From the NCBI GenBank assembly GCA_963835065.1, contig CAWIEK010000024.1:32001-96000 (forward strand): a stretch of 64,000 nt of DNA, in the 5' to 3' direction. This DNA comes from an uncultured Chthonomonadaceae bacterium. Its GTDB lineage: Bacteria > Armatimonadota > Chthonomonadetes > Chthonomonadales > Chthonomonadaceae. This document shows, piece by piece, positions 7,947 to 16,999 of this stretch (position 1 is the stretch's first letter; each line of letters begins with the position of its first letter). The notes under the pieces are model-generated. The model was given only the letters and a program-made list of their open reading frames with translations, did no database searches and was not told the origin of the DNA. The position numbers were made by a program, and so were the translations under genes.

Positions 7947-8043
7947 GGTGGTTGGTGGCTGGTGGTTGGTGATTGGTTTACAAGTATACGCTTATCGCAG
8001 GCGTCATCTTAAACCAATCACTAATCACCAGCCGCCAACCACC
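7947..8043. repeat. Inverted heptamer (TGGTGGT-like) tandem arrays
   Basis: 34-bp arms with 3 mismatches; right arm overlaps the 3' end of the GT4 gene. Confidence 0.8.
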
Positions 8044-9143
8044 TCCTCATACGCTTGATCCTGCCGCTGCGCCATTGCCTGCGCGGTGTAGCAGGCGGCA
8101 AAGCGTTCCCGCGCGGCGCAACTCCAGCGCTTGTTGATTTCGGGCGTAAACGCTTGGGCAAGCCCTGCCGCAAACGCCGCAGGATCGGCAATCGGGGCCA
8201 GCCAGCCGTTTTCGTCATGCGTTACCACATCCCGGACTCCCGGCGCGTCACAGCCCACAATCGGCAGGCCGCATGACATGGCTTCCAGAGCGGCGAGGGG
8301 AAGCCCCTCGAATTTGGACGGCAGCGCCAACACATCCGCTGCCGCCAGCAGGGGCGCAATGTCGTGGCAATTGCCCAAAAACCGCGTTTGCTCGCCCACG
8401 CCGATCCGCCGGGCTTCCTGTTCCGTCGCGTGTCGCGCCCAGCCGTCACCCGCAAATAACGCCATTGCGGGCTGCCCCTGCGCTTTCAGTTTCGCCAGCG
8501 CATGCAGCAGCACATACGGGTCTTTCTGCTCCACAAGCCGCCCCAAAAACAGCGCGACAGGCATGTCCTGCGGTAAATCCAACGCCTGCCGCGCCTGCCG
8601 TCGAGAAAGGGGCAAGGCTATGGCTTCCACGCCGTTGTCTATGACAAACGCCTTTTCCGGCGCGATCAAATCACATCCCAGCAGCGATTCGCGCACACTT
8701 GCCGATACGCCGTACAGCCGATCCAAAAGCCCGTTTACGCGCCGCCGCCGTTCCAGTTCATGCTCCAGTTTCAGGACGCAGGGAATATGCTCTGTCGCCA
8801 CCACATAAGGCACATGCGCGCACCGAGCAGCAATGGTTCCCCAATCCCCTTCCCACGTCGCGCCGATGTGGTTGTGGAAAATATCAATACGCCATTCCTG
8901 CAATTGCGTTACCAGCCGGGGCAATTGCGCCACATCCGCGTCCCATCGCAGCGTAAACCGCGCCACCCCTGATACATACGATGCCATCCGCGCGACAAGT
9001 TCGTCCGTTCCCGGATGCTCGGCGCAAATCAGGAACGTTTCGTAGCGCGCGGACGGCAAATGCTTCGCCAGCAACTCCATTACGCGGCCCACGCCGCTCG
9101 GATGCAGACTGTCGGTATAAAAGGCTAGGCGGTGAGTGGGCAT
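8025..9143 (-). CDS. GT4 glycosyltransferase
   Basis: GRLVEQK, EGLPLAALEAMSCGLP motif. Confidence 0.92.
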   Translation of the reverse strand: MPTHRLAFYTDSLHPSGVGRVMELLAKHLPSARYETFLICAEHPGTDELVARMASYVSGVARFTLRWDADVAQLPRLVTQLQEWRIDIFHNHIGATWEGDWGTIAARCAHVPYVVATEHIPCVLKLEHELERRRRVNGLLDRLYGVSASVRESLLGCDLIAPEKAFVIDNGVEAIALPLSRRQARQALDLPQDMPVALFLGRLVEQKDPYVLLHALAKLKAQGQPAMALFAGDGWARHATEQEARRIGVGEQTRFLGNCHDIAPLLAAADVLALPSKFEGLPLAALEAMSCGLPIVGCDAPGVRDVVTHDENGWLAPIADPAAFAAGLAQAFTPEINKRWSCAARERFAACYTAQAMAQRQDQAYEEVVGGW

Positions 9144-9239
9144 AGAGATAAGAGATAAGAGATAAGAGATAAGAGGGTAAGAAACGGTATAAGATAGCAG
9201 CTATGAGACGCCTTTTCTCTTATCTCTTATCTCTTATCT
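9144..9239. repeat. Inverted (GATAAGA)n / (TCTTATC)n arrays
   Basis: Direct reading; sits between two GT genes. Confidence 0.9.
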
Positions 9240-10333
9240 AGTGCCTGAAACAGCGCTTCCCACTGCGGCACGACGGCGTGGGAACTGTAGGCGCGAACCA
9301 CATGGGCGCGTAAGGCTTGGCCCAGGCGGGCGCGTTGGCCGGGTTGGTCAATCAAGTTAAGCATTGCTTGCGCGACGGCGGGCGGAGTTTCATGCGGCAC
9401 GAACACGCCTGAAATGCCGTCTTCGATTTGCTGCGGCGTACCGCCGTCGCGGGTAGCGATGACGGGCAAGCCCGCCGCGCCCGCTTCGGCAATCACGTGC
9501 GGCATCCCCTCGCCCTGCGACAGCCAGGTGAAAATATCCAGCCCGGACAGCAGGCGCGGCACGTCGGGACGGTCGCCGGTGAAAATCATGCGGTCAGCCA
9601 ATCCCCGCTCCTGCGCCTGTTGCTTTAATCCGTCCGCATATTCCGGGTGAAACGCATCCGGCCCGCCGATAACGACAAAACGCGCGTTCGGACGCTGAGG
9701 CGCGACAAGGGCGCAGGCTTCGACAAAATCCTGTACGCGCTTTTTGGGGTCCAGCCGCCCCACCCATCCAATTACAACCGCATCAGGCGCGACGTTCCAC
9801 TCCGCCCGTACCGCTGCGCGGTCTTCCGGGCGAAACTCCGACATATCCACCATGCTCGGAATTTCCAGCGCCCATTCGGGGTCGGGCATCACCGTTGCCG
9901 CCGCGTCCCGAATGTCTTTGCACACGCCCACATAGGCGCTCGTATGGTGCTTGGGATTGTGGAACGCTTCGGACACCAGCCCGCCATGCTCAATTAAAGG
10001 TGGAACCGGCCCGCCGTCCGCGCGCAGCAAATCATAGGCCACATACACGGGGCGGACGCCCTGACACGCCACCACGACATTAAACTGATCGTCGCGTATC
10101 CGTTGCGCGATATGCGGCCCGTGTTCCTCCGGCCCCGTGCCGTAGCAGTACGTGTCTACGGCAACGCCCAATTCGCGCAACTGCTCGTGCGTCTGGTACG
10201 GCATGTTGGGACGCCGGTACGTGGACAGCGCTTCCAGATGGTAGCGCTTGCGATCCAGACACCGCGCCAACAGCCGCAGTTCCGTTTCTTCCCCGCCCAC
10301 CACCAGCCACGCAAACACAAACAAAATCTTCAC
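9227..10333 (-). CDS. GT4 glycosyltransferase
   Basis: GRLDPKK, EGMPHVIAEAGAAGLP. Confidence 0.92.
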   Translation of the reverse strand: MKILFVFAWLVVGGEETELRLLARCLDRKRYHLEALSTYRRPNMPYQTHEQLRELGVAVDTYCYGTGPEEHGPHIAQRIRDDQFNVVVACQGVRPVYVAYDLLRADGGPVPPLIEHGGLVSEAFHNPKHHTSAYVGVCKDIRDAAATVMPDPEWALEIPSMVDMSEFRPEDRAAVRAEWNVAPDAVVIGWVGRLDPKKRVQDFVEACALVAPQRPNARFVVIGGPDAFHPEYADGLKQQAQERGLADRMIFTGDRPDVPRLLSGLDIFTWLSQGEGMPHVIAEAGAAGLPVIATRDGGTPQQIEDGISGVFVPHETPPAVAQAMLNLIDQPGQRARLGQALRAHVVRAYSSHAVVPQWEALFQALDKR

Positions 10334-10348
10334 GGGTTTACTTGTTCC

Positions 10349-11491
10349 TTACCCTTCGCACTCCAACACCACCTGCAAAGCCTGCCCGCCCTCATGCGCC
10401 AGCAGGGAAAAGGCTTCCTGCGCTTCGGCAAACGGCAGGATGTGCGTAATCAGGTGTTCGCGTACATCCGCGCCTCTTTCCTGTAAAAACGCGAGGGTTG
10501 TCAGTGCCAGGCGGCGGTGGTTCCATGTTGCCGACATCTTGCGTGGGACGCGGTAGATTTGGGCGCAGATATGTTTCAGGCCGTTGTGGTGGAATTCGCG
10601 CCCCAGTTGCAGATTGTTCGCGCCGCCCTGATAAAAGCCCAGGTCAATGACGGGGCACTGTGGCTGCAAAGCGCGCAGGCACAAATGCAACAGTTCGTCC
10701 GAACCCGAACATTGGAAGGCTATGTCCGCGCCCCGGTTGCCCAATCCGTCGTGCCAGTGCGTTTTGGCCCACCAGCCCACGTCTATCTCCTGCGTGTTCA
10801 GAGCCGTCATGCCAAGCCGCGTCGCCCGCTCCAATTTCCACGCATTGCGGCCCGCAACTGCCACTTCCGCCGCGCCCGCCCACTGGCACAACATGCCCGT
10901 AAACAGCCCGATAACGCCCGTGCCGCCGATTAGAACGCGCTTGCCTCGGACGCCGCAGCCAAAGGTTTGCGCATTTGCGCCGAACGCTTCTTCATCCGCA
11001 TGAAGCAGGCCATTGGCGCAAATCGGCCCCATCTGCGCCACATAAATACCGAGCATGGGATCGAAATCGGGAGGGAGAGGATAATACAGTTCGTTGCGGG
11101 CCAAAACCGTATGCCCGCTCTTGTGTCCATACGTCACGCTGACCGTTTGCCCGGCTTCCACGCCCCACGCCCGCGACGCGACGACCTGCCCCACCTGCAT
11201 ATAGCCGGAAAACGGCAGGGGATACTGCGCCCTGTCGCCCCAATCGAAGAACACTTTGAGGTCATTATCCCAACGCGCATGAAGATAGGGGTTGGTTCCG
11301 AGGAAATGGGTCAGTTCGGTTCCCGTGGAAAGCCCGCAATACAAGGTGCGAACGCGAAACGCCTCCGGGGGCAGTTCGCCCTCTTCGTAATGAAAAATCG
11401 CGGCGCGTTCGGGCGCTACAAACCCAATATGCTCCACGCCAAACGGCCCCTGATAAGCGTTTTCCTGTTCGCGGCTCATGCGTCCATCCAA
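10349..11491 (-). CDS. MDR-family (zinc-type alcohol dehydrogenase-like) oxidoreductase
   Basis: GLSTGTE GroES-like start, GxGxxG (GTGVIG) Rossmann motif. Confidence 0.8.
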   Translation of the reverse strand: MDGRMSREQENAYQGPFGVEHIGFVAPERAAIFHYEEGELPPEAFRVRTLYCGLSTGTELTHFLGTNPYLHARWDNDLKVFFDWGDRAQYPLPFSGYMQVGQVVASRAWGVEAGQTVSVTYGHKSGHTVLARNELYYPLPPDFDPMLGIYVAQMGPICANGLLHADEEAFGANAQTFGCGVRGKRVLIGGTGVIGLFTGMLCQWAGAAEVAVAGRNAWKLERATRLGMTALNTQEIDVGWWAKTHWHDGLGNRGADIAFQCSGSDELLHLCLRALQPQCPVIDLGFYQGGANNLQLGREFHHNGLKHICAQIYRVPRKMSATWNHRRLALTTLAFLQERGADVREHLITHILPFAEAQEAFSLLAHEGGQALQVVLECEG

Positions 11492-11607: not shown

Positions 11608-12843
11608 TCAATCTGAAGTTATAATTTGTTTGTCCGGCAGCAGCAGGCGCATCTCGATTTTGTCCGCGCCGAAATAGCCCTGCTGTCGGCGCACTCCAGC
11701 AGGAACTTTCACCACAAGCGCCTGACGGCTTTGCGCCACATACGCGCCCCTGCGCGCCACAACCCAACCGCCCTCCTCCACGCCCAATCCCGTATAGCCC
11801 GGCTGATCCAGCACCGCTGTCAGCAGGCGCTGCATCCGATTACGGGCAAAAAAATGCTGGTCTACAATGGTTTTGGGCAGCAGGTTGAGGCCGCTTGCCA
11901 GGGGACAGCCGCCGGACTGCAAGCCCTGCGTTTTCACCGTTTCGCCCGTCGGCATTTTGGCTCCCATCAGCGAGGCTCCCGCGCTTGTTCCCCCCACAAC
12001 GCCGCCGCGCCGCAATACCTGTCGTATGGCTTCCGGGACGCCCGAAGTTTCCGGGAAAGCGGTCATAAAGCGGTTCTGGTCGCCGCCCGGTATCCACACG
12101 CCCCGCGCTTCCCGCAAGCGCCTGCACAAGTCGTCGGGAGACAATCCTACCGGAGCATCCACCTGCCGCGCGCCGTTGTCCCGAAACAAGGCGACGGATT
12201 CCGGCCCGCCCACAGCCGGGTCCGCTTCCGTTTGCGGCAAAATCACAATCGGCGCGTCCGGCCCGCCCGCCGCTTCCACAAAGGTCTTTACCAGCGCGGG
12301 CGATGTTTTGCCGCCGCCCGCCACCAGCACGGTTCCGGCGTGGTTCGGCTCTTTTGCAGGCGCGGAACCTTCCGGCAGTTGTCCGGCTGCCGTCGTGTCC
12401 TGCGCCTTTCCCTCCTGCACAGTTGCCGCGCCAGGAAGCGTATTCGCCGCGCCGCGTAGTTCTTTGGCTATCGGCGCGTTCAGGCGATCCGGGCGTTCGG
12501 CGGCGTAGCCGGGAGCCACCATCAGCGCCGACAGCAGCCGGAAAGCGGACCGTGAAGCCAACGAGAACGACAAGCCGCCGGGAAGATGCGCGGGCCGAAA
12601 CAACACCCAACCCTGCCACGCAAACACCAGCAGCCAAAACAGCGTCACCCAGGGCGGCTTGGCCCAGCACCGCCACGTTTTCACGCCCTTTAACGCCGCC
12701 AGAACATAGAACAGGGTCGCCAGCCCCGACAGCGCGAACAGCGCGTACTTTTGAAAAATCAGCACGAGAAACGCCGCCTTACAAAACGTAAAAGCGTAGC
12801 CCTCGTACTTGCGCCCCTGCTCTTGTCTGTCCCATTCGCTCAT
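11608..12843 (-). CDS. Cyanophycinase-like S51 peptidase with N-terminal Cys-containing membrane segment
   Basis: GGDQNR, GGTSAGA, DQHF..RNR..RL motifs; first ~90 aa are hydrophobic and unrelated to S51. Confidence 0.8.
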   Translation of the reverse strand: MSEWDRQEQGRKYEGYAFTFCKAAFLVLIFQKYALFALSGLATLFYVLAALKGVKTWRCWAKPPWVTLFWLLVFAWQGWVLFRPAHLPGGLSFSLASRSAFRLLSALMVAPGYAAERPDRLNAPIAKELRGAANTLPGAATVQEGKAQDTTAAGQLPEGSAPAKEPNHAGTVLVAGGGKTSPALVKTFVEAAGGPDAPIVILPQTEADPAVGGPESVALFRDNGARQVDAPVGLSPDDLCRRLREARGVWIPGGDQNRFMTAFPETSGVPEAIRQVLRRGGVVGGTSAGASLMGAKMPTGETVKTQGLQSGGCPLASGLNLLPKTIVDQHFFARNRMQRLLTAVLDQPGYTGLGVEEGGWVVARRGAYVAQSRQALVVKVPAGVRRQQGYFGADKIEMRLLLPDKQIITSD

Positions 12844-12896
12844 CGCACCCTCCGATTCAGGTATTCGGTGTTCAGGAAATGCAAAAGCATAGAGGT

Positions 12897-13442
12897 TTAC
12901 TTTAGCACGTCAAGATTATTATCTGCAGCATCTCCAATACTGGACTGTTGCCTGCTCCGCCATACCTTCCGACAGAGTATAATGCCGCCTACTAATCCAC
13001 TGCCGTAACTGCCCAGATGGATCCACAAATCGGTTAAAAAATAAACATGGCGACTGGCAGGAATTTGAGAAGCAAGTGGCTCTACCAAGTACACCAGACG
13101 CGCTGTTGCGGCGGCAAAGCCGATGATACCCGCAAGAATAGCACAACACGCCATCGCGCCAAGCAAAATGCCAATCGGACGCGCTAACGACCAAACCGAA
13201 CGTTTCGGAGCCTCACCATGCAGCGCGGCAAACGCGAGCGGAATGCCGAGAAGCAACCCTACCCACCATGTAGCAACAATTCCCCAACCCAACCCCAACA
13301 GCGTGGGATTGTCTGTGCCGAAAATGTTCGGATGTCCAATCGTAAAATATTCGACACAAATACGCGCCGTGATTTGGTCATGGATGATACCGTAGCAAAC
13401 CGCCGCAACGATGCACAACAGGATGATAGTTAAGAATTTCAA
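12897..13442 (-). CDS. Hypothetical 4-TM membrane protein
   Basis: 181 aa, TTG start with GGAGG SD; YGIIHDQIT..IC.EYF..GH motif. Confidence 0.7.
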   Translation of the reverse strand: MKFLTIILLCIVAAVCYGIIHDQITARICVEYFTIGHPNIFGTDNPTLLGLGWGIVATWWVGLLLGIPLAFAALHGEAPKRSVWSLARPIGILLGAMACCAILAGIIGFAAATARLVYLVEPLASQIPASRHVYFLTDLWIHLGSYGSGLVGGIILCRKVWRSRQQSSIGDAADNNLDVLK

Positions 13443-13472
13443 AATACCTCCGTCTGCTCAACCCTCAACTAC

Positions 13473-14969
13473 TCAACTCTCAACGCTCAATGGAATAATC
13501 GTTTCCGGCTTCCTTTGCCCACGATGAAACACGTTGTACTCGCAGAAGGAAACGGCTTCGCCCTGCGCGTTCAGGATTTTGGTGCAGCACTGTTGGATAC
13601 GCTTGTGGTCGTATGTGTGCGCGTCCATGAACGGTTTTACCACGACGCGAAACACGCGCCTGCCGAACTGTTCCGGCTGCCCGATGAGCGGCAATACATC
13701 CCGCAGGCCGCTGCGCAAAAACAGGGTCGCCAGGTCGCGCAGGGTTTGGCGGGCGCGCAAATGGGCTACGTCCGACCAGACCCGCCGCGCCGCGCCGCCC
13801 AGCATCCCCGCGAAACTGATCCGATCCGCGAACAAATCCAGATAGCGGGCCACGTCCAGATGGCGCGGCAGGGGCGTAATAGTTTCGCGCTTGGCGTCCA
13901 GAAAGCCATACGTCAGGGCGCAGCAATCGGGGTGCGAACAGGGCAGGCCGACAAAATCGCTCGTCAGCAACGCGCCGCCCGTTTGACAATCCAACTCGCG
14001 CAGCACGTCCGTCATGGTCAAGCGCTCATGCGCGGCGAATTCATGTTCGTACCGCCCCGCGCTCATTACGGGCTGAAACGTCAGGCCGTTGATGTTATCG
14101 AGTGACAGGGCGTAGCGGTACAGGTCGCCGATTTCATCGTCATTAACGCCCCGCTCCAATGTCGCCACAAGAGTTACGAACAAGCCCTTTTCCTGCGCCC
14201 GCCGCAAGGCTTTCTGCTTGACGGCAATCAAGTCCCGCCCGTACAAACGCGCCTGCACATCCGCCCGGAAACTGGAAAACGAGAAAAACAACTCCACGCG
14301 CTCACGATGCGCCGCCAGAACTTCCAGCAGTTCGTCGCTTTGCTCCAAACGCAGGCCGTTGGTATTCACCAGGATACGCCCGATGGGATATTCTAACGCC
14401 AAATTGAGCATTTCGGCAAAGTGGGGATGAATGGTCGGCTCACCGCCACTGAGCATTAGCACATCCAGACTGCGCTGTGTCCGAAAAAACGTGTCCAATC
14501 GCTGTCGCGCCGTTTCCACGCTCATAAAATCGTGCCCCCGCGCATCCGCATAGCACGTCGGGCAGCGCAGATTACACGCGAGGGTGATTTCCAGCAGCAG
14601 CACACAGGTGGGAGGAGCGGGAGGAAAGGATGAATCCATTGCCGGTTGCCGATTGCCGACTGCCGATTGGGTTTTTCCTGTTCCCTGTTCCCTGTTCCCT
14701 GTTTCCTCTTCTATTCCCCCGCAGCAGGCGGAGTCGCTGCCGCAGCAGCCGGTGATTGCGCTTGGCAGCCCGACACGCGGCGACACGTACCGGCGGAGGC
14801 GCAGGTACTCGTTGGCGTCTGATGCCAGCAGCGCTTTAGATGCGCCGTGACGCGGACAGGTTCGTTCCATCCACACTCGTTCCGCCTCGACAAACAGCCG
14901 GGCGGGAACCGTCCGCAGGCACGTCGGGCACAATCCGTCCGTCTGCTCGGTCCACTCTGCCATTTCCAT
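13473..14969 (-). CDS. Radical SAM enzyme, Tes/GDGT-MAS (MJ0619/COG1964)-like
   Basis: N-terminal CPTC...CPRH, CNLRCPTC SAM motif, PCSHPDC, C-terminal FMD...R...CC...FCEYN. Confidence 0.85.
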   Translation of the reverse strand: MEMAEWTEQTDGLCPTCLRTVPARLFVEAERVWMERTCPRHGASKALLASDANEYLRLRRYVSPRVGLPSAITGCCGSDSACCGGIEEETGNREQGTGKTQSAVGNRQPAMDSSFPPAPPTCVLLLEITLACNLRCPTCYADARGHDFMSVETARQRLDTFFRTQRSLDVLMLSGGEPTIHPHFAEMLNLALEYPIGRILVNTNGLRLEQSDELLEVLAAHRERVELFFSFSSFRADVQARLYGRDLIAVKQKALRRAQEKGLFVTLVATLERGVNDDEIGDLYRYALSLDNINGLTFQPVMSAGRYEHEFAAHERLTMTDVLRELDCQTGGALLTSDFVGLPCSHPDCCALTYGFLDAKRETITPLPRHLDVARYLDLFADRISFAGMLGGAARRVWSDVAHLRARQTLRDLATLFLRSGLRDVLPLIGQPEQFGRRVFRVVVKPFMDAHTYDHKRIQQCCTKILNAQGEAVSFCEYNVFHRGQRKPETIIPLSVES

Positions 14970-15057
14970 ACCGTTTTCTACGCTTTCTTCAAACAGGCAA
15001 TGCAGGCATCAGGCACAAGTTTCAAGCATACCTGTACCGAACACCCTTAGATGTGAG

Positions 15058-15219
15058 TAACTTTTCACCACCAAGACGCCAAGAACACCAAGAGAAAACA
15101 GGCCACAAAAAGACACAGAATCGAAGTTGGTTTCGTTCTCTCCTGCAATTTCACTACGTTGTTCTTCTCGTCCTTCTTGTTCTGCTTGGTGTTCTTAGTG
15201 TCTTGGTGGTGAAAAGTTA
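15058..15219. repeat. CACCAAGA-based inverted-repeat element, copy 1
   Basis: TTTTCACCACCAAGACGCCAAGAACACCAAG...CTTGGTGTTCTTAGTGTCTTGGTGGTGAAAA; second copy 23479-23610. Confidence 0.85.
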
Positions 15220-15228
15220 GCGATGTGA

Positions 15229-15585
15229 TTATATATTTCTGCACAGTATCAGGATTCCCAGGAAAATCAACAGCACAACCAAGAAGGGAATCATCATGCC
15301 GCAGGCCGCGAAATGGGATCGTCGGTACACATACAGCGCGGCCAAAACCGTGCCTACCCAGGGCAGAGAGTACAGCCATAACGCGCTTGGAAACACAGAT
15401 ATGAACGCCACGCTGACGACGCTCAACCCGATCAGCAAACCGAAGGATAGGCCGAACCCCGCCAGTATGTCCAGGGCTTTGTTGTTCGTCAGCAGCTTGG
15501 GCGATGGATGCAGCGACGTGCCGCATTGCGGACAGTAGAGGGTGTTGGGAGGCGTCTGGATATGACAATTCGGGCATTGTTTCAT
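15229..15585 (-). CDS. Zinc-ribbon membrane protein with C-terminal Cys
   Basis: CPNC...CPQC, three TM segments, ends ILILCRNI; GGAGGAGG SD. Confidence 0.75.
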   Translation of the reverse strand: MKQCPNCHIQTPPNTLYCPQCGTSLHPSPKLLTNNKALDILAGFGLSFGLLIGLSVVSVAFISVFPSALWLYSLPWVGTVLAALYVYRRSHFAACGMMIPFLVVLLIFLGILILCRNI

Positions 15586-15664
15586 GTTGGTTCCTCCTCC
15601 GGCAGCGCGCAATAAAATGGTTCATCCGGTTCGTGAACGCAAGGGACGGCCCGTGATTGGCGTG

Positions 15665-16342
15665 TTAGGAAAGCGCGAAACTGTCCGTCGCTTGTCCTGC
15701 GCGCAGCAAGTGGCGCAGGCGAACCGAAAAGAAAATCGCGCCCGCGATACATGCCCACTGCGCAGCGGTAATCATGGCGGCATCGGGATGGTCGCGCCAG
15801 AATTCCACGCCGAACCGCGCTATGCAGTACAAGGCTCCCTGCGCGCAAAACAGCGCGTTTTCCGGCAGGGTTTGGTTTCGCCGCGCTTCCAGCAAAATCA
15901 GGACGATCAAAATCAGCAGGCAGGACAGGGATAAATATAGCTGCGTGGGATGGCGATACGCGCCGTGCTGCCACACCGCCCATGCCATGCCCGTCGGCTT
16001 GCCATAGCAGCACCCGCCGAAAAAACAGCCCCACCGCCCCACCGCTTCGCCCGCGCAAATCGCCACCGCGAATAAATCTCCCGTCGGGCGTCGGATGCCA
16101 AGCCACTTTTTCGCCAGCGCGACAGCCAGATACCCGCCCACAATGCCGCCCAATACCGTTTTGCCAGCCGTGCCCGTCGTCAGCCATTGCGCTACATTCG
16201 CGCACAGCAGCCCGCCGATGATGCCCGCTACGAGCAGCGCGAAAATGCCTTCTGTCGCCAGGCCGCGCCGTCGCGCCATCCACGCGAACGCCGCCAACCC
16301 AGTCAAATATCCTGCCGCATAACAGCCCGCCGAAAGCGTCAT
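15665..16342 (-). CDS. Divergent prolipoprotein diacylglyceryl transferase (Lgt-like)
   Basis: GRWGCFFGGCCYG, HPTQLY, RFGVEFWR motifs; short (225 aa). Confidence 0.85.
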   Translation of the reverse strand: MTLSAGCYAAGYLTGLAAFAWMARRRGLATEGIFALLVAGIIGGLLCANVAQWLTTGTAGKTVLGGIVGGYLAVALAKKWLGIRRPTGDLFAVAICAGEAVGRWGCFFGGCCYGKPTGMAWAVWQHGAYRHPTQLYLSLSCLLILIVLILLEARRNQTLPENALFCAQGALYCIARFGVEFWRDHPDAAMITAAQWACIAGAIFFSVRLRHLLRAGQATDSFALS

Positions 16343-16480
16343 TTCACTCCCATTCCGTAAGCGCTCTGTGATCTCATTCGCGCTTTTTTATTCGCGTTCA
16401 TTCGCGGCTTCTTAACTCTGAAGTCGGTTTTGAAGCCGGTTCGCCAATCTTTGCTCCCCATTTCACCCTTCATTGCCGCG

Positions 16481-16999
16481 TTATTGCCGTGTCAGGGTGA
16501 AGACAGCGCCGACATTGACATGGCTTGGATCGGAAGGCAGTCCGGGCAGGAGCAATATTCCTCCCAAATGTCCCTGAGCGTCAAAACCATAGTTGCCGTT
16601 GGCAGGATTACTCTGGCTGCCCTGCACAACGGTTCCTCTCACAATGCCTGTCGTGGTGTCGCCGCTGGTATCGAATTGGGCGTCCACCGTGCCGTCCTGA
16701 TTGGCAGTCGCATTGTGGAGCGTACCTGTGATTTTGCCCTTCGCGTCAATGTCGAGCGTCAAGTTTCCGGTTTGCAGGGGGCCGAGGGTTGATCCGAGAT
16801 TCGTCGGGGTCTGCCATGTGCCGATCCAGCGGCCAACAAACTTGGAAAGCGGCTGCGGCGGCGTCAGTTGAGCCACGGGAAAAGAGGAGGCTGGCTGAAA
16901 GTCCTGGGGGCGTATAGGCCCGCCATATCCGCATCCAATGAGCAAGCTGCTGCCGAGTGTGAGCGGGATCAGCAGTAAGAGCGCGTGAGAAGTTCGCAT
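16481..16999 (-). CDS. Putative lipoprotein (beta-rich)
   Basis: Signal peptide with lipobox-like LLIG-C; GGAGG SD. Confidence 0.7.
   Translation of the reverse strand: MRTSHALLLLIPLTLGSSLLIGCGYGGPIRPQDFQPASSFPVAQLTPPQPLSKFVGRWIGTWQTPTNLGSTLGPLQTGNLTLDIDAKGKITGTLHNATANQDGTVDAQFDTSGDTTTGIVRGTVVQGSQSNPANGNYGFDAQGHLGGILLLPGLPSDPSHVNVGAVFTLTRQ

Follow-up and report, generated by a model that had tools for sequence, protein, structure and literature searches.

The stretch of DNA analysed here (the window) comprises 64,000 nucleotides of contig CAWIEK010000024.1 from an uncultured Chthonomonadaceae bacterium of the phylum Armatimonadota (GCA_963835065.1). It carries a cassette in which an enzyme of the radical S-adenosylmethionine (SAM) type, modelled with the fold of the tetraether synthase Tes/GDGT-MAS, is encoded beside a paralogue of the diacylglyceryl transferase Lgt and small cysteine-bearing membrane proteins. 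As the original prediction had it, six consecutive open reading frames (ORFs) occupy the minus strand between positions 11608 and 16999, with all the motifs that it quoted. They encode the following features.

16481..16999, minus strand: lipoprotein of 172 residues with a canonical lipobox (LIGC, residues 20-23), ordinary-looking
15665..16342, minus strand: Lgt paralogue of 225 residues, Pfam LGT (PF01790); core gene
15229..15585, minus strand: zinc-ribbon protein of 118 residues, a putative client, with Pfam Zn_Ribbon_1 and three hydrophobic helices; core gene
13473..14969, minus strand: radical SAM enzyme of 498 residues with a modelled GDGT-MAS fold; core gene
12897..13442, minus strand: hypothetical protein of 181 residues with four transmembrane segments (4-TM protein); probable passenger
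12592..12843, minus strand: two-Cys membrane protein of about 85 residues with three helices; core gene of this branch, stand-alone elsewhere
11608..12591, minus strand: domain of the Peptidase S51 type (cyanophycinase-like), continuing the reading frame of the two-Cys protein as a fusion; outside the conserved system

Conservation of these genes was assessed in 80 loci fetched around relatives of the radical SAM enzyme, the closest of which belong to records labelled Chthonomonadaceae (identity up to 78%). An Lgt homologue is present in 60 of the 80 loci, and in 49/55 of those with at least 3 kb of upstream sequence. The two-Cys protein, represented by the N-terminal 84 residues of its fusion with the peptidase, was matched in 70/80, and in 65/70 of the loci with at least 1 kb downstream. 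By tblastn at E<=1e-3, the lipoprotein and the 4-TM protein were recovered in 0/80 loci each and the peptidase domain in 1/80. These three do not recur, and the six genes that had been taken as one unit therefore resolve into a system of four gene kinds accompanied by passengers. The linkage of the four core genes is far beyond chance.

The association is also manifested at the level of whole genomes. The radical SAM enzyme was found in 34 of 151 Armatimonadota genomes, in which the Lgt hits split at a gap (at least 93 bits versus 76 bits or less); the class cut was placed at this gap after it had been seen, and the upper class is present in exactly the 34 genomes holding the enzyme. In 29/34 pairs (a count combined from two tables), enzyme and paralogue share a contig and are no more than about 3 kb apart, and the two-Cys protein occurs in 28/151 genomes, all of them within the enzyme-bearing 34. 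Twenty of the 27 lower-scoring Lgt hits were fetched, and they look like housekeeping copies because 17 carry His-Gly-Gly/Ala, two have Tyr in place of His and one could not be assigned. The cassette was met in 0/9 sampled genomes of its own family, the Chthonomonadaceae, and in 0/5 of its order, and is therefore accessory. Beyond Armatimonadota, the set appears in loci labelled Chloroflexota and Vulcanimicrobiota; phylum searches centred on G002 and G001 gave the same genomes and form a single sample of Chloroflexota type, to which the label 'Rubrobacter' on L059 adds no further phylum. Four named species, Chondrinema litorale, Persicobacter psychrovividus, Mycobacterium branderi and Nonomuraea gerenzanensis, among them Bacteroidota and Actinomycetota, have records with the same arrangement, and two of 11 long homologues scanned are natural Lgt-radical SAM fusions. 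This survey of gene neighbourhoods, one of the checks proposed at the outset, thus finds the pairing of the two enzymes with Cys-bearing small membrane proteins conserved across phyla. A phage or defence origin was considered and rejected: the cassette is nearly absent among the viral contigs scanned (one of 80 viral loci matched at full length, at 24%), PADLOC returned weak, generic viperin hits to the radical SAM core and no specific defence-family match, and the clients match no PADLOC family. A scan for promoters and terminators gave signal at chance level.

The radical SAM enzyme carries CPTC at residue 14, CPRH at 38, CNLRCPTC at 132, CSHPDCC at 344, FMD at 447, CC at 461 and FCEYN at 475, and is recognized in Pfam as Radical_SAM with Zn_ribbon_HMPTM. 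Its rubredoxin site (C14/C17/C38/H41) and SAM cluster (C132/C136/C139) match the Tes motifs CxxC-x20-CxxH (PMC9433317) and CxxxCxxC. In the C-terminal cluster region, C349, M448, C461, C462 and C476 align with invariant Tes positions, and the equivalent of Met439 is kept in 58/60 aligned rows. GDGT-MAS is the sole full-length sequence match (7TOL, E 1e-49). The predicted model, with a mean confidence (pLDDT) of 86, is matched by Foldseek to the same entry (E 2e-33, TM 0.73), and in the VIA structure comparison GDGT-MAS scores Z 44.2, with a root mean square deviation (rmsd) of 2.7 over 412 residues, the next hit reaching Z 19.9. Judged by its model, the enzyme has the four-domain GDGT-MAS fold, and the Tes-like architecture that had been read from its motifs extends to the whole chain.

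A common fold does not make the enzyme a tetraether synthase. It scores 190.3 bits on NF045702 against a cut-off of 450, while 7/7 Tes-type controls drawn from a motif scan of metagenomes score 498-722 bits. The N-terminal auxiliary cluster motif CxxxCxxCxxH (Tes ligands C73, C77, C80 and a His) is absent here and in 80/80 close loci; in close Armatimonadota relatives a disordered loop at this region carries a CC..C patch instead, and Chloroflexota relatives have no Cys there. The position of Tyr459, a residue conserved in archaeal Tes, is occupied by Ile465, with Tyr in 0/60 Lgt-branch rows versus 14/14 Tes rows, and an extra cysteine, Cys344, stands beside the C-terminal cluster in 60/60 Lgt-branch rows versus 0/14 of Tes, as well as in branches without Lgt. 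Two unrooted trees were built, one with FastTree on 106 rows (39 close Armatimonadota and 29 Tes-type rows omitted as redundant) and one with IQ-TREE on 50 rows under LG+G4, with no mixture model. Both place the enzyme among Lgt-linked rows, on a branch (SH-aLRT 98) that separates it from Tes and from TrsS, and the approximately unbiased (AU) test, with groups named after the tree had been seen, rejects its grouping with Tes (p 5e-11). True Tes is thereby ruled out by profile score, branch and AU test alike, and membership of Tes itself is not supported by the profile and phylogenetic placement that the original prediction had suggested as a check. TrsS is ruled out as well, the score on NF045646 being 233.8 bits against a cut-off of 490 and the enzyme not grouping with TrsS in the tree. 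In the region relevant to the two hydrophobic lipid pockets of Tes, a helical segment at residues 366-440 is hydrophobic and of Tes-like length (74 residues versus 69-77), with low model confidence in part (pLDDT 57-62 at 381-410); its hydrophobic moment does not separate the branches. Elsewhere in the family, a sister branch found on Mycolicibacterium and haloarchaeal plasmids (L263, L265, L266) has class I methyltransferases and redox genes as its neighbours and lacks an Lgt there, and members on the TrsS side (P0221, P0254, P0267, P0200) are fused to AMP-binding, MobA-like/HD, methyltransferase or DUF5714 domains.

At the level of the transferase, the paralogue matches Pfam PF01790 at 101.6 bits (gathering threshold 24.9) and TIGR00544 at 50.2 bits, under the equivalog cut-off of 118.9. 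A single-sequence search of the PDB with it found nothing, a profile search reached 5AZB with E 1.2e-29, and its model (pLDDT 94.7) superposes on 5AZC with Z 17.3 (rmsd 3.3, 215 residues), the next hit scoring 7.8. In the profile alignment to 5AZB, GKTVLGG falls on E. coli GMSFHGG, in agreement with the substitution that had been noticed at the housekeeping HGG motif. The equivalents of R143, G154, R239, E243 and R246 are R103, G114, R176, E180 and R183, and those of His103 and Met100 are L64 and K61. Across 66 paralogues mapped through the 5AZB alignment (that of the window, 50 of the 68 from the locus listing and 15 others), the equivalents of R143, G154, R239 and R246 are invariant (66/66), E243 is Glu in 61 and Asp in 5, and the Met100 position is Lys or Arg in 59. 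In E. coli Lgt, according to passages of PMC4728403 and PMC8689077, R143, R239 and R246 bind the phosphatidylglycerol donor and His103 is essential, the variants H103A/N/Q/R/Y all failing (PMC4728403). With the arginines kept and His103 lost, the donor site is thus retained and the thiol-activating site altered. The same genome holds elsewhere a separate housekeeping Lgt with GGLSLHGG, which bears out the idea of a second, dedicated copy. Among housekeeping-class Lgt copies, those of L369 and L387 have Tyr replacing His103. The Cys-rich RxGCxxxGCCYG was rejected as a paralogue-specific feature, since it is also present in housekeeping Lgts of this phylum.

The third component is variable in everything but its end. 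The zinc-ribbon ORF was listed at 15229-15612 as 127 residues from a TTG, its likely start being the ATG at 15585 behind GGAGG. The last helix of the protein ends Gly-Ile-Leu-Ile-Leu-Cys, with ILILCRNI at the C-terminus and the Cys codon at 15241-15243. In other loci, one to many small membrane proteins adjoin the two enzymes, with N-terminal parts that vary (zinc ribbon, GYF_2-like or a small unnamed domain) and one constant feature, a Cys ending a hydrophobic helix with Gly at -2 or -5. In Armatimonadota-type loci, 62/68 zinc-ribbon/GYF-type genes end in such a helix-capping Cys, and L022:27-5351 contains 13 tandem zinc-ribbon/helix-Cys paralogues upstream of the enzyme (median identity 24%). 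When ORFs were called mechanically, some loci being the same genome fetched twice, the Gly..Cys box was found in 90/168 membrane ORFs at 89 Lgt-bearing loci, 68 of which have an ORF that passes, and in 13/19 at 23 loci of the same branch where the Lgt lies beyond the sequence range; the controls gave 0/14 membrane ORFs at 46 Tes loci, 1/13 at 29 other loci and 74/1465 genome-wide. The client helix has a median of 21 uncharged residues, with a mean of 2.4 Lys/Arg before it and 0.5 after it (n=103). This is the layout of a lipoprotein signal, and it predicts that the client Cys lies on the outer side of the membrane, the side of Lgt action. Among boxes counted from residue 36 onward, 1/103 conforms to the canonical lipobox [LVI][ASTVI][GAS]C, a rarity that would account for a transferase of their own, and residue -1 is L/V/I/T in 75/103, mostly bulky. 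The variable cytoplasmic domains and the tandem expansion suggest that the clients may be interchangeable sensors or tethers. In eight Limnocylindria-type loci of Chloroflexota (L063, L064, L066, L067, L071, L075, L077, L078), the capping Cys is followed by a soluble domain of about 130 residues with two more Cys, for which the one example checked gave no Pfam match.

The two-Cys protein is of a different nature. Its cysteines C21 (in AFTFCK) and C59 are invariant in 49/49 aligned copies whose identity ranges from 23 to 85%, and both lie in basic stretches predicted to be cytoplasmic, that is, on the side of the enzyme. The Cys proteins that the original prediction treated alike therefore fall into two classes: the clients, which vary and whose Cys is predicted on the outer face, and the two-Cys protein, which is conserved and has both Cys predicted on the cytoplasmic side. 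The latter is matched by 1465 protein clusters, with no Pfam family among the 120 matches listed; its Atlas look-alikes are unnamed, and the cultured Capsulimonas corticalis has a copy. It was seen only beside enzymes without the N-terminal cluster motif, in 70 of the first 80 loci, and in the Armatimonadota genomes with the protein that were inspected (the window and 11 more, of 28) 12/12 enzymes lack the motif; conversely, none of the inspected loci that keep the motif has the protein. A strict rule by which enzymes without the cluster have the two-Cys partner was rejected, because among six enzyme-bearing Armatimonadota genomes without a two-Cys match three keep the motif and three lack it, and the pairing of partner and motif loss may come from a single evolutionary event. 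We infer that the protein serves as an electron relay or docking partner of the enzyme. Four Armatimonadota loci without it (L272, L273, L274, L276) have an ICMT/PEMT-family methyltransferase beside the enzyme, three of them also with a DUF4395-like Cys protein.

The remaining features of the locus lie outside the conserved set. Elsewhere the two-Cys protein ends at about 85-100 residues, and its fusion to a peptidase was met only in the window (11608-12843, an ORF of 411 residues with Peptidase_S51 at residues 235-364 in Pfam) and, among the 80 loci, in L003:11407-12594. In the window, the fusion linker (residues ~92-115) still resembles a signal peptide, which suggests a recent read-through fusion. 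The peptidase matches PF03575 and scores 104 bits on TIGR02069 (cut-off 127); it carries GTSAG, DQHF and GVEE, which we take to be the catalytic motifs of an S51 peptidase. The 4-TM protein (12897-13442) has a sub-threshold Pfam match only, Atlas look-alikes in unnamed clusters of Planctomycetota/Bacteroidota, and a third-position GC content of 0.51 versus 0.70-0.77 in the four core genes; it is probably an inserted passenger. It carries YGIIHDQ/EYF/H residues. The lipoprotein matches neither Pfam nor NCBIfam. Downstream on the same strand (8025-11491) lie a zinc-type dehydrogenase and two GT4 glycosyltransferases, the dehydrogenase following the cassette only in L001 and L003. Two repeats interrupt the core region:

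15058..15219, strand not assigned: inverted-repeat element with 35-nt arms, 94% complementary, between the client gene and the enzyme gene
14625..14715, minus strand: genome-wide repeat inside the enzyme gene, an in-frame insertion lying in a disordered loop (about residues 87-115)

The arm of the inverted repeat gave 113 blastn hits on 29 contigs, so that it is genome-wide and not cassette-specific. The repeat in the enzyme gene gave 656 hits on 60 contigs and is absent from most enzyme homologues; the model has pLDDT below 50 at residues 66-95 and 97-111. A further repeat family, with 57 hits, lies at 16343-16480.

These results fit with the idea that the enzyme modifies or couples phospholipid tails and that the Lgt paralogue moves the resulting lipid to the cysteines of the clients, a reading to which we assign a probability of roughly 0.45. 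Considerably safer, and probable, is the wider view that a single lipid-to-cysteine pathway involves both enzymes. In the first step, tails of phospholipids would be altered or welded by the Tes-fold enzyme on the inner side of the membrane, a lipid substrate being suggested by the fold and the retained C-terminal cluster ligands. In the second, the paralogue would move the diacylglyceryl unit of the modified lipid onto the Cys capping the last helix of the clients, a transfer to which the retained arginine network points and in which the conserved Lys/Arg at the Met100 position might substitute for the lost His103. Signal-peptidase cleavage of the clients would not follow, given the bulky residue before the Cys. 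The two-Cys protein would act as a membrane-side redox or docking partner, compensating for the lost N-terminal cluster. This reading draws on co-occurrence, adjacency, fusion, folds and the helix-capping Cys, from which the chemistry itself is extrapolated. A more far-reaching form, in which a membrane-spanning welded lipid is bolted to the internal Cys of interchangeable small membrane proteins, so that these gain a lipid anchor reaching across the entire bilayer, and the two-Cys protein replaces the electron relay of the lost cluster, is unlikely.

Several observations weigh against the transfer of a tail-modified lipid to the clients. The His103 position is His in 0/66 paralogues, which speaks against ordinary Lgt chemistry; that the His is not universal is indicated by the two copies of the housekeeping class with Tyr, which soften the objection and do not remove it. 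The active sites of enzyme and paralogue are predicted on opposite sides of the membrane, so that the lipid must cross it. A single Lgt-linked clade was rejected, as L127 and L191 fall among non-Lgt rows (AU p 0.001), and sister branches of the enzyme family adjoin methyltransferases without Lgt or are TrsS. The helical segment, aligned between C-terminal cluster ligands, is present in all branches, including those without Lgt, and because these sister branches keep a similar segment the fold does not fix the substrate. As for the clients, 21 of the 89 Lgt-bearing loci have no ORF passing the box, and the enrichment is partly circular because the box was defined after looking at the sequences. 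Neither the related genomes among the 151 nor several of the loci, which share a genome or come from related ones, count as independent.

Among the alternatives, the one that survives best, unlikely as it is, concerns sulfur chemistry. Here the enzyme would end its reaction at the C-S step of the Tes mechanism, or divert that step, producing a tail-thiolated lipid or a tail-to-Cys thioether on the two-Cys protein or on a client, with the paralogue supplying or moving the lipid. The thiolated lipid intermediate that GDGT-MAS makes, as described in part of PMC9433317, would provide the precedent, and the extra C344 beside the C-terminal cluster (60/60 versus 0/14 in Tes), the missing Tyr459, the two cysteines of the two-Cys protein in basic, predicted cytoplasmic stretches and the ICMT/PEMT-family methyltransferase in the four Armatimonadota loci without that protein all agree with it. 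However, C344 also occurs in non-Lgt branches, Tyr459 is dispensable for coupling by GDGT-MAS (same source, in the passage concerned), and the Cys of the clients is predicted at the outer face, beyond the reach of the enzyme. Less likely still, the cassette would make free membrane-spanning or macrocyclic lipids, with the Lgt-like protein as a non-catalytic carrier or flippase and the Cys proteins as transient acceptors or bystanders. The fold and C-terminal cluster region shared with GDGT-MAS, a binding-only role that would suit the loss of His103, and the proposal, in the part of PMC8941075 concerned, that bacterial Tes homologues are brGDGT synthases (brGDGT, branched glycerol dialkyl glycerol tetraether) favor this idea. 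It is countered by the patchy distribution (34/151 genomes, 0/9 sampled of the own family), by the absence of an Lgt or two-Cys gene from all 48 Tes-type loci, by the finding, in what PMC13159169 reports on the point, that Tes homologues do not track bacterial membrane-spanning lipids (3/14 producing Acidobacteria), and by the diversifying arrays of up to 13 Cys-capped proteins, unexpected for bulk lipid synthesis. The reverse order, which was the version of the original prediction, is improbable: ordinary diacylglyceryl would first be put on the clients by the paralogue, and its tails would then be welded by the enzyme, either to a lipid or to a second client, so that proteins are tethered across the bilayer. 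The same genomic evidence as for the preferred order applies to it, and tandem clients could be the partners, but GDGT-MAS takes whole lipids into its pockets with the head groups outward (PMC9433317, in the section on binding of lipids), and a tail on an outer-face Cys would be hard to reach from the cytoplasm. Equally improbable is a non-lipid system in which the enzyme modifies the small proteins or a small molecule, as in ribosomally made and modified peptides (RiPPs), and the Lgt fold is a scaffold, exporter or immunity factor, since the methyltransferase, MobA-like, DUF5714 or AMP-binding partners of other family branches, the strong conservation of the two-Cys protein and the lost His103 that would suit it are set against the absence of a SPASM/RRE-type domain in Pfam, a whole-chain match to a lipid enzyme with RiPP maturases scoring Z <20 against the model, the invariant phosphatidylglycerol-binding arginines of the paralogue and the PADLOC result (weak viperin hits only).

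The transfer of a radically altered lipid to the clients, if true, would represent a new protein modification, an internal S-lipidation, and would give bacteria an enzyme that acts on the unactivated C-H bonds of ordinary fatty-acyl tails. The cassette is real and conserved and would be of the Lgt-type S-lipidation kind. It combines two known enzyme folds, though neither protein qualifies for the named family of its fold; we infer its mechanism. No description of an Lgt-Tes pairing was found in the open-access full-text literature searched, supplements aside (e.g. Supplementary Fig. 5 of PMC9433317 and the homologue tables of PMC8941075). In the portions of these sources that bear on it, Lloyd et al. 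(PMC9433317) state that bacterial homologues exist, with reactions given as unknown, Zeng et al. (PMC8941075) propose brGDGT synthesis for bacterial Tes homologues, and Sahonero-Canavesi et al. (PMC13159169) dissociate such homologues from membrane-spanning lipids; by term counts, a 2026 review (PMC13459092) names neither Lgt nor lipoprotein. To indicate brGDGT producers, bacterial Tes homologues serve as candidate markers, their activity being unconfirmed, as passages of PMC8941075 and PMC11868695 indicate. A large branch tied to the Lgt paralogue and Cys-capped proteins lies outside the Tes clade, so such hits should not be read as tetraether synthases. Cultured carriers are available in Capsulimonas corticalis and, with the enzyme pair and Cys-capped neighbours, in Chondrinema litorale and Nonomuraea gerenzanensis.

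Compared with known systems, the enzyme resembles Tes/GDGT-MAS (M. jannaschii MJ0619; PDB 7TOL, 7TOM) in its whole-chain fold, the rubredoxin CxxC..CxxH, the SAM cluster and the C-terminal cluster with the Met of FMD, a site at which GDGT-MAS, according to part of PMC9433317, parks the lipid radical as a C-S intermediate, that is, a thiolated lipid. It differs from Tes as defined by NF045702 in falling below the cut-off, on a separate branch, and in lacking CxxxCxxCxxH and Tyr459, a residue that the same work, in the passage concerned, finds unnecessary for activity and coupling. It also sits with an Lgt paralogue, whereas an Lgt or two-Cys gene is found in 0/48 Tes-type loci (19 of them with 2.5 kb or more on each side). 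With the radical SAM (seleno)protein TrsS (NF045646) it shares the superfamily branch and domain order, and this family gives its best NCBIfam score (234 bits). The paralogue is like E. coli Lgt (PDB 5AZB/5AZC; PF01790, TIGR00544) in fold and in the R143/G154/R239/E243/R246 network, and unlike it in lacking His103 (0/66), in having Lys/Arg at Met100 (59/66) and in being a second genomic copy, with candidate acceptors in which the Cys, internal or C-terminal, follows the last helix in a non-canonical box. The closest parallel in concept is MYXO-CTERM sorting, for which the part of PMC11980579 that describes it predicts Lgt-like lipidation of a C-terminal Cys followed by myxosortase cleavage. 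The idea of Lgt-like lipidation at a Cys beside a C-terminal helix is common to both; in MYXO-CTERM, however, that account has the Cys preceding the helix (inverted topology), a transferase yet to be identified and a protease that follows, whereas in the cassette the Cys comes after the helix, no protease is conserved, and the neighbouring genes encode a dedicated Lgt paralogue as well as a radical enzyme.

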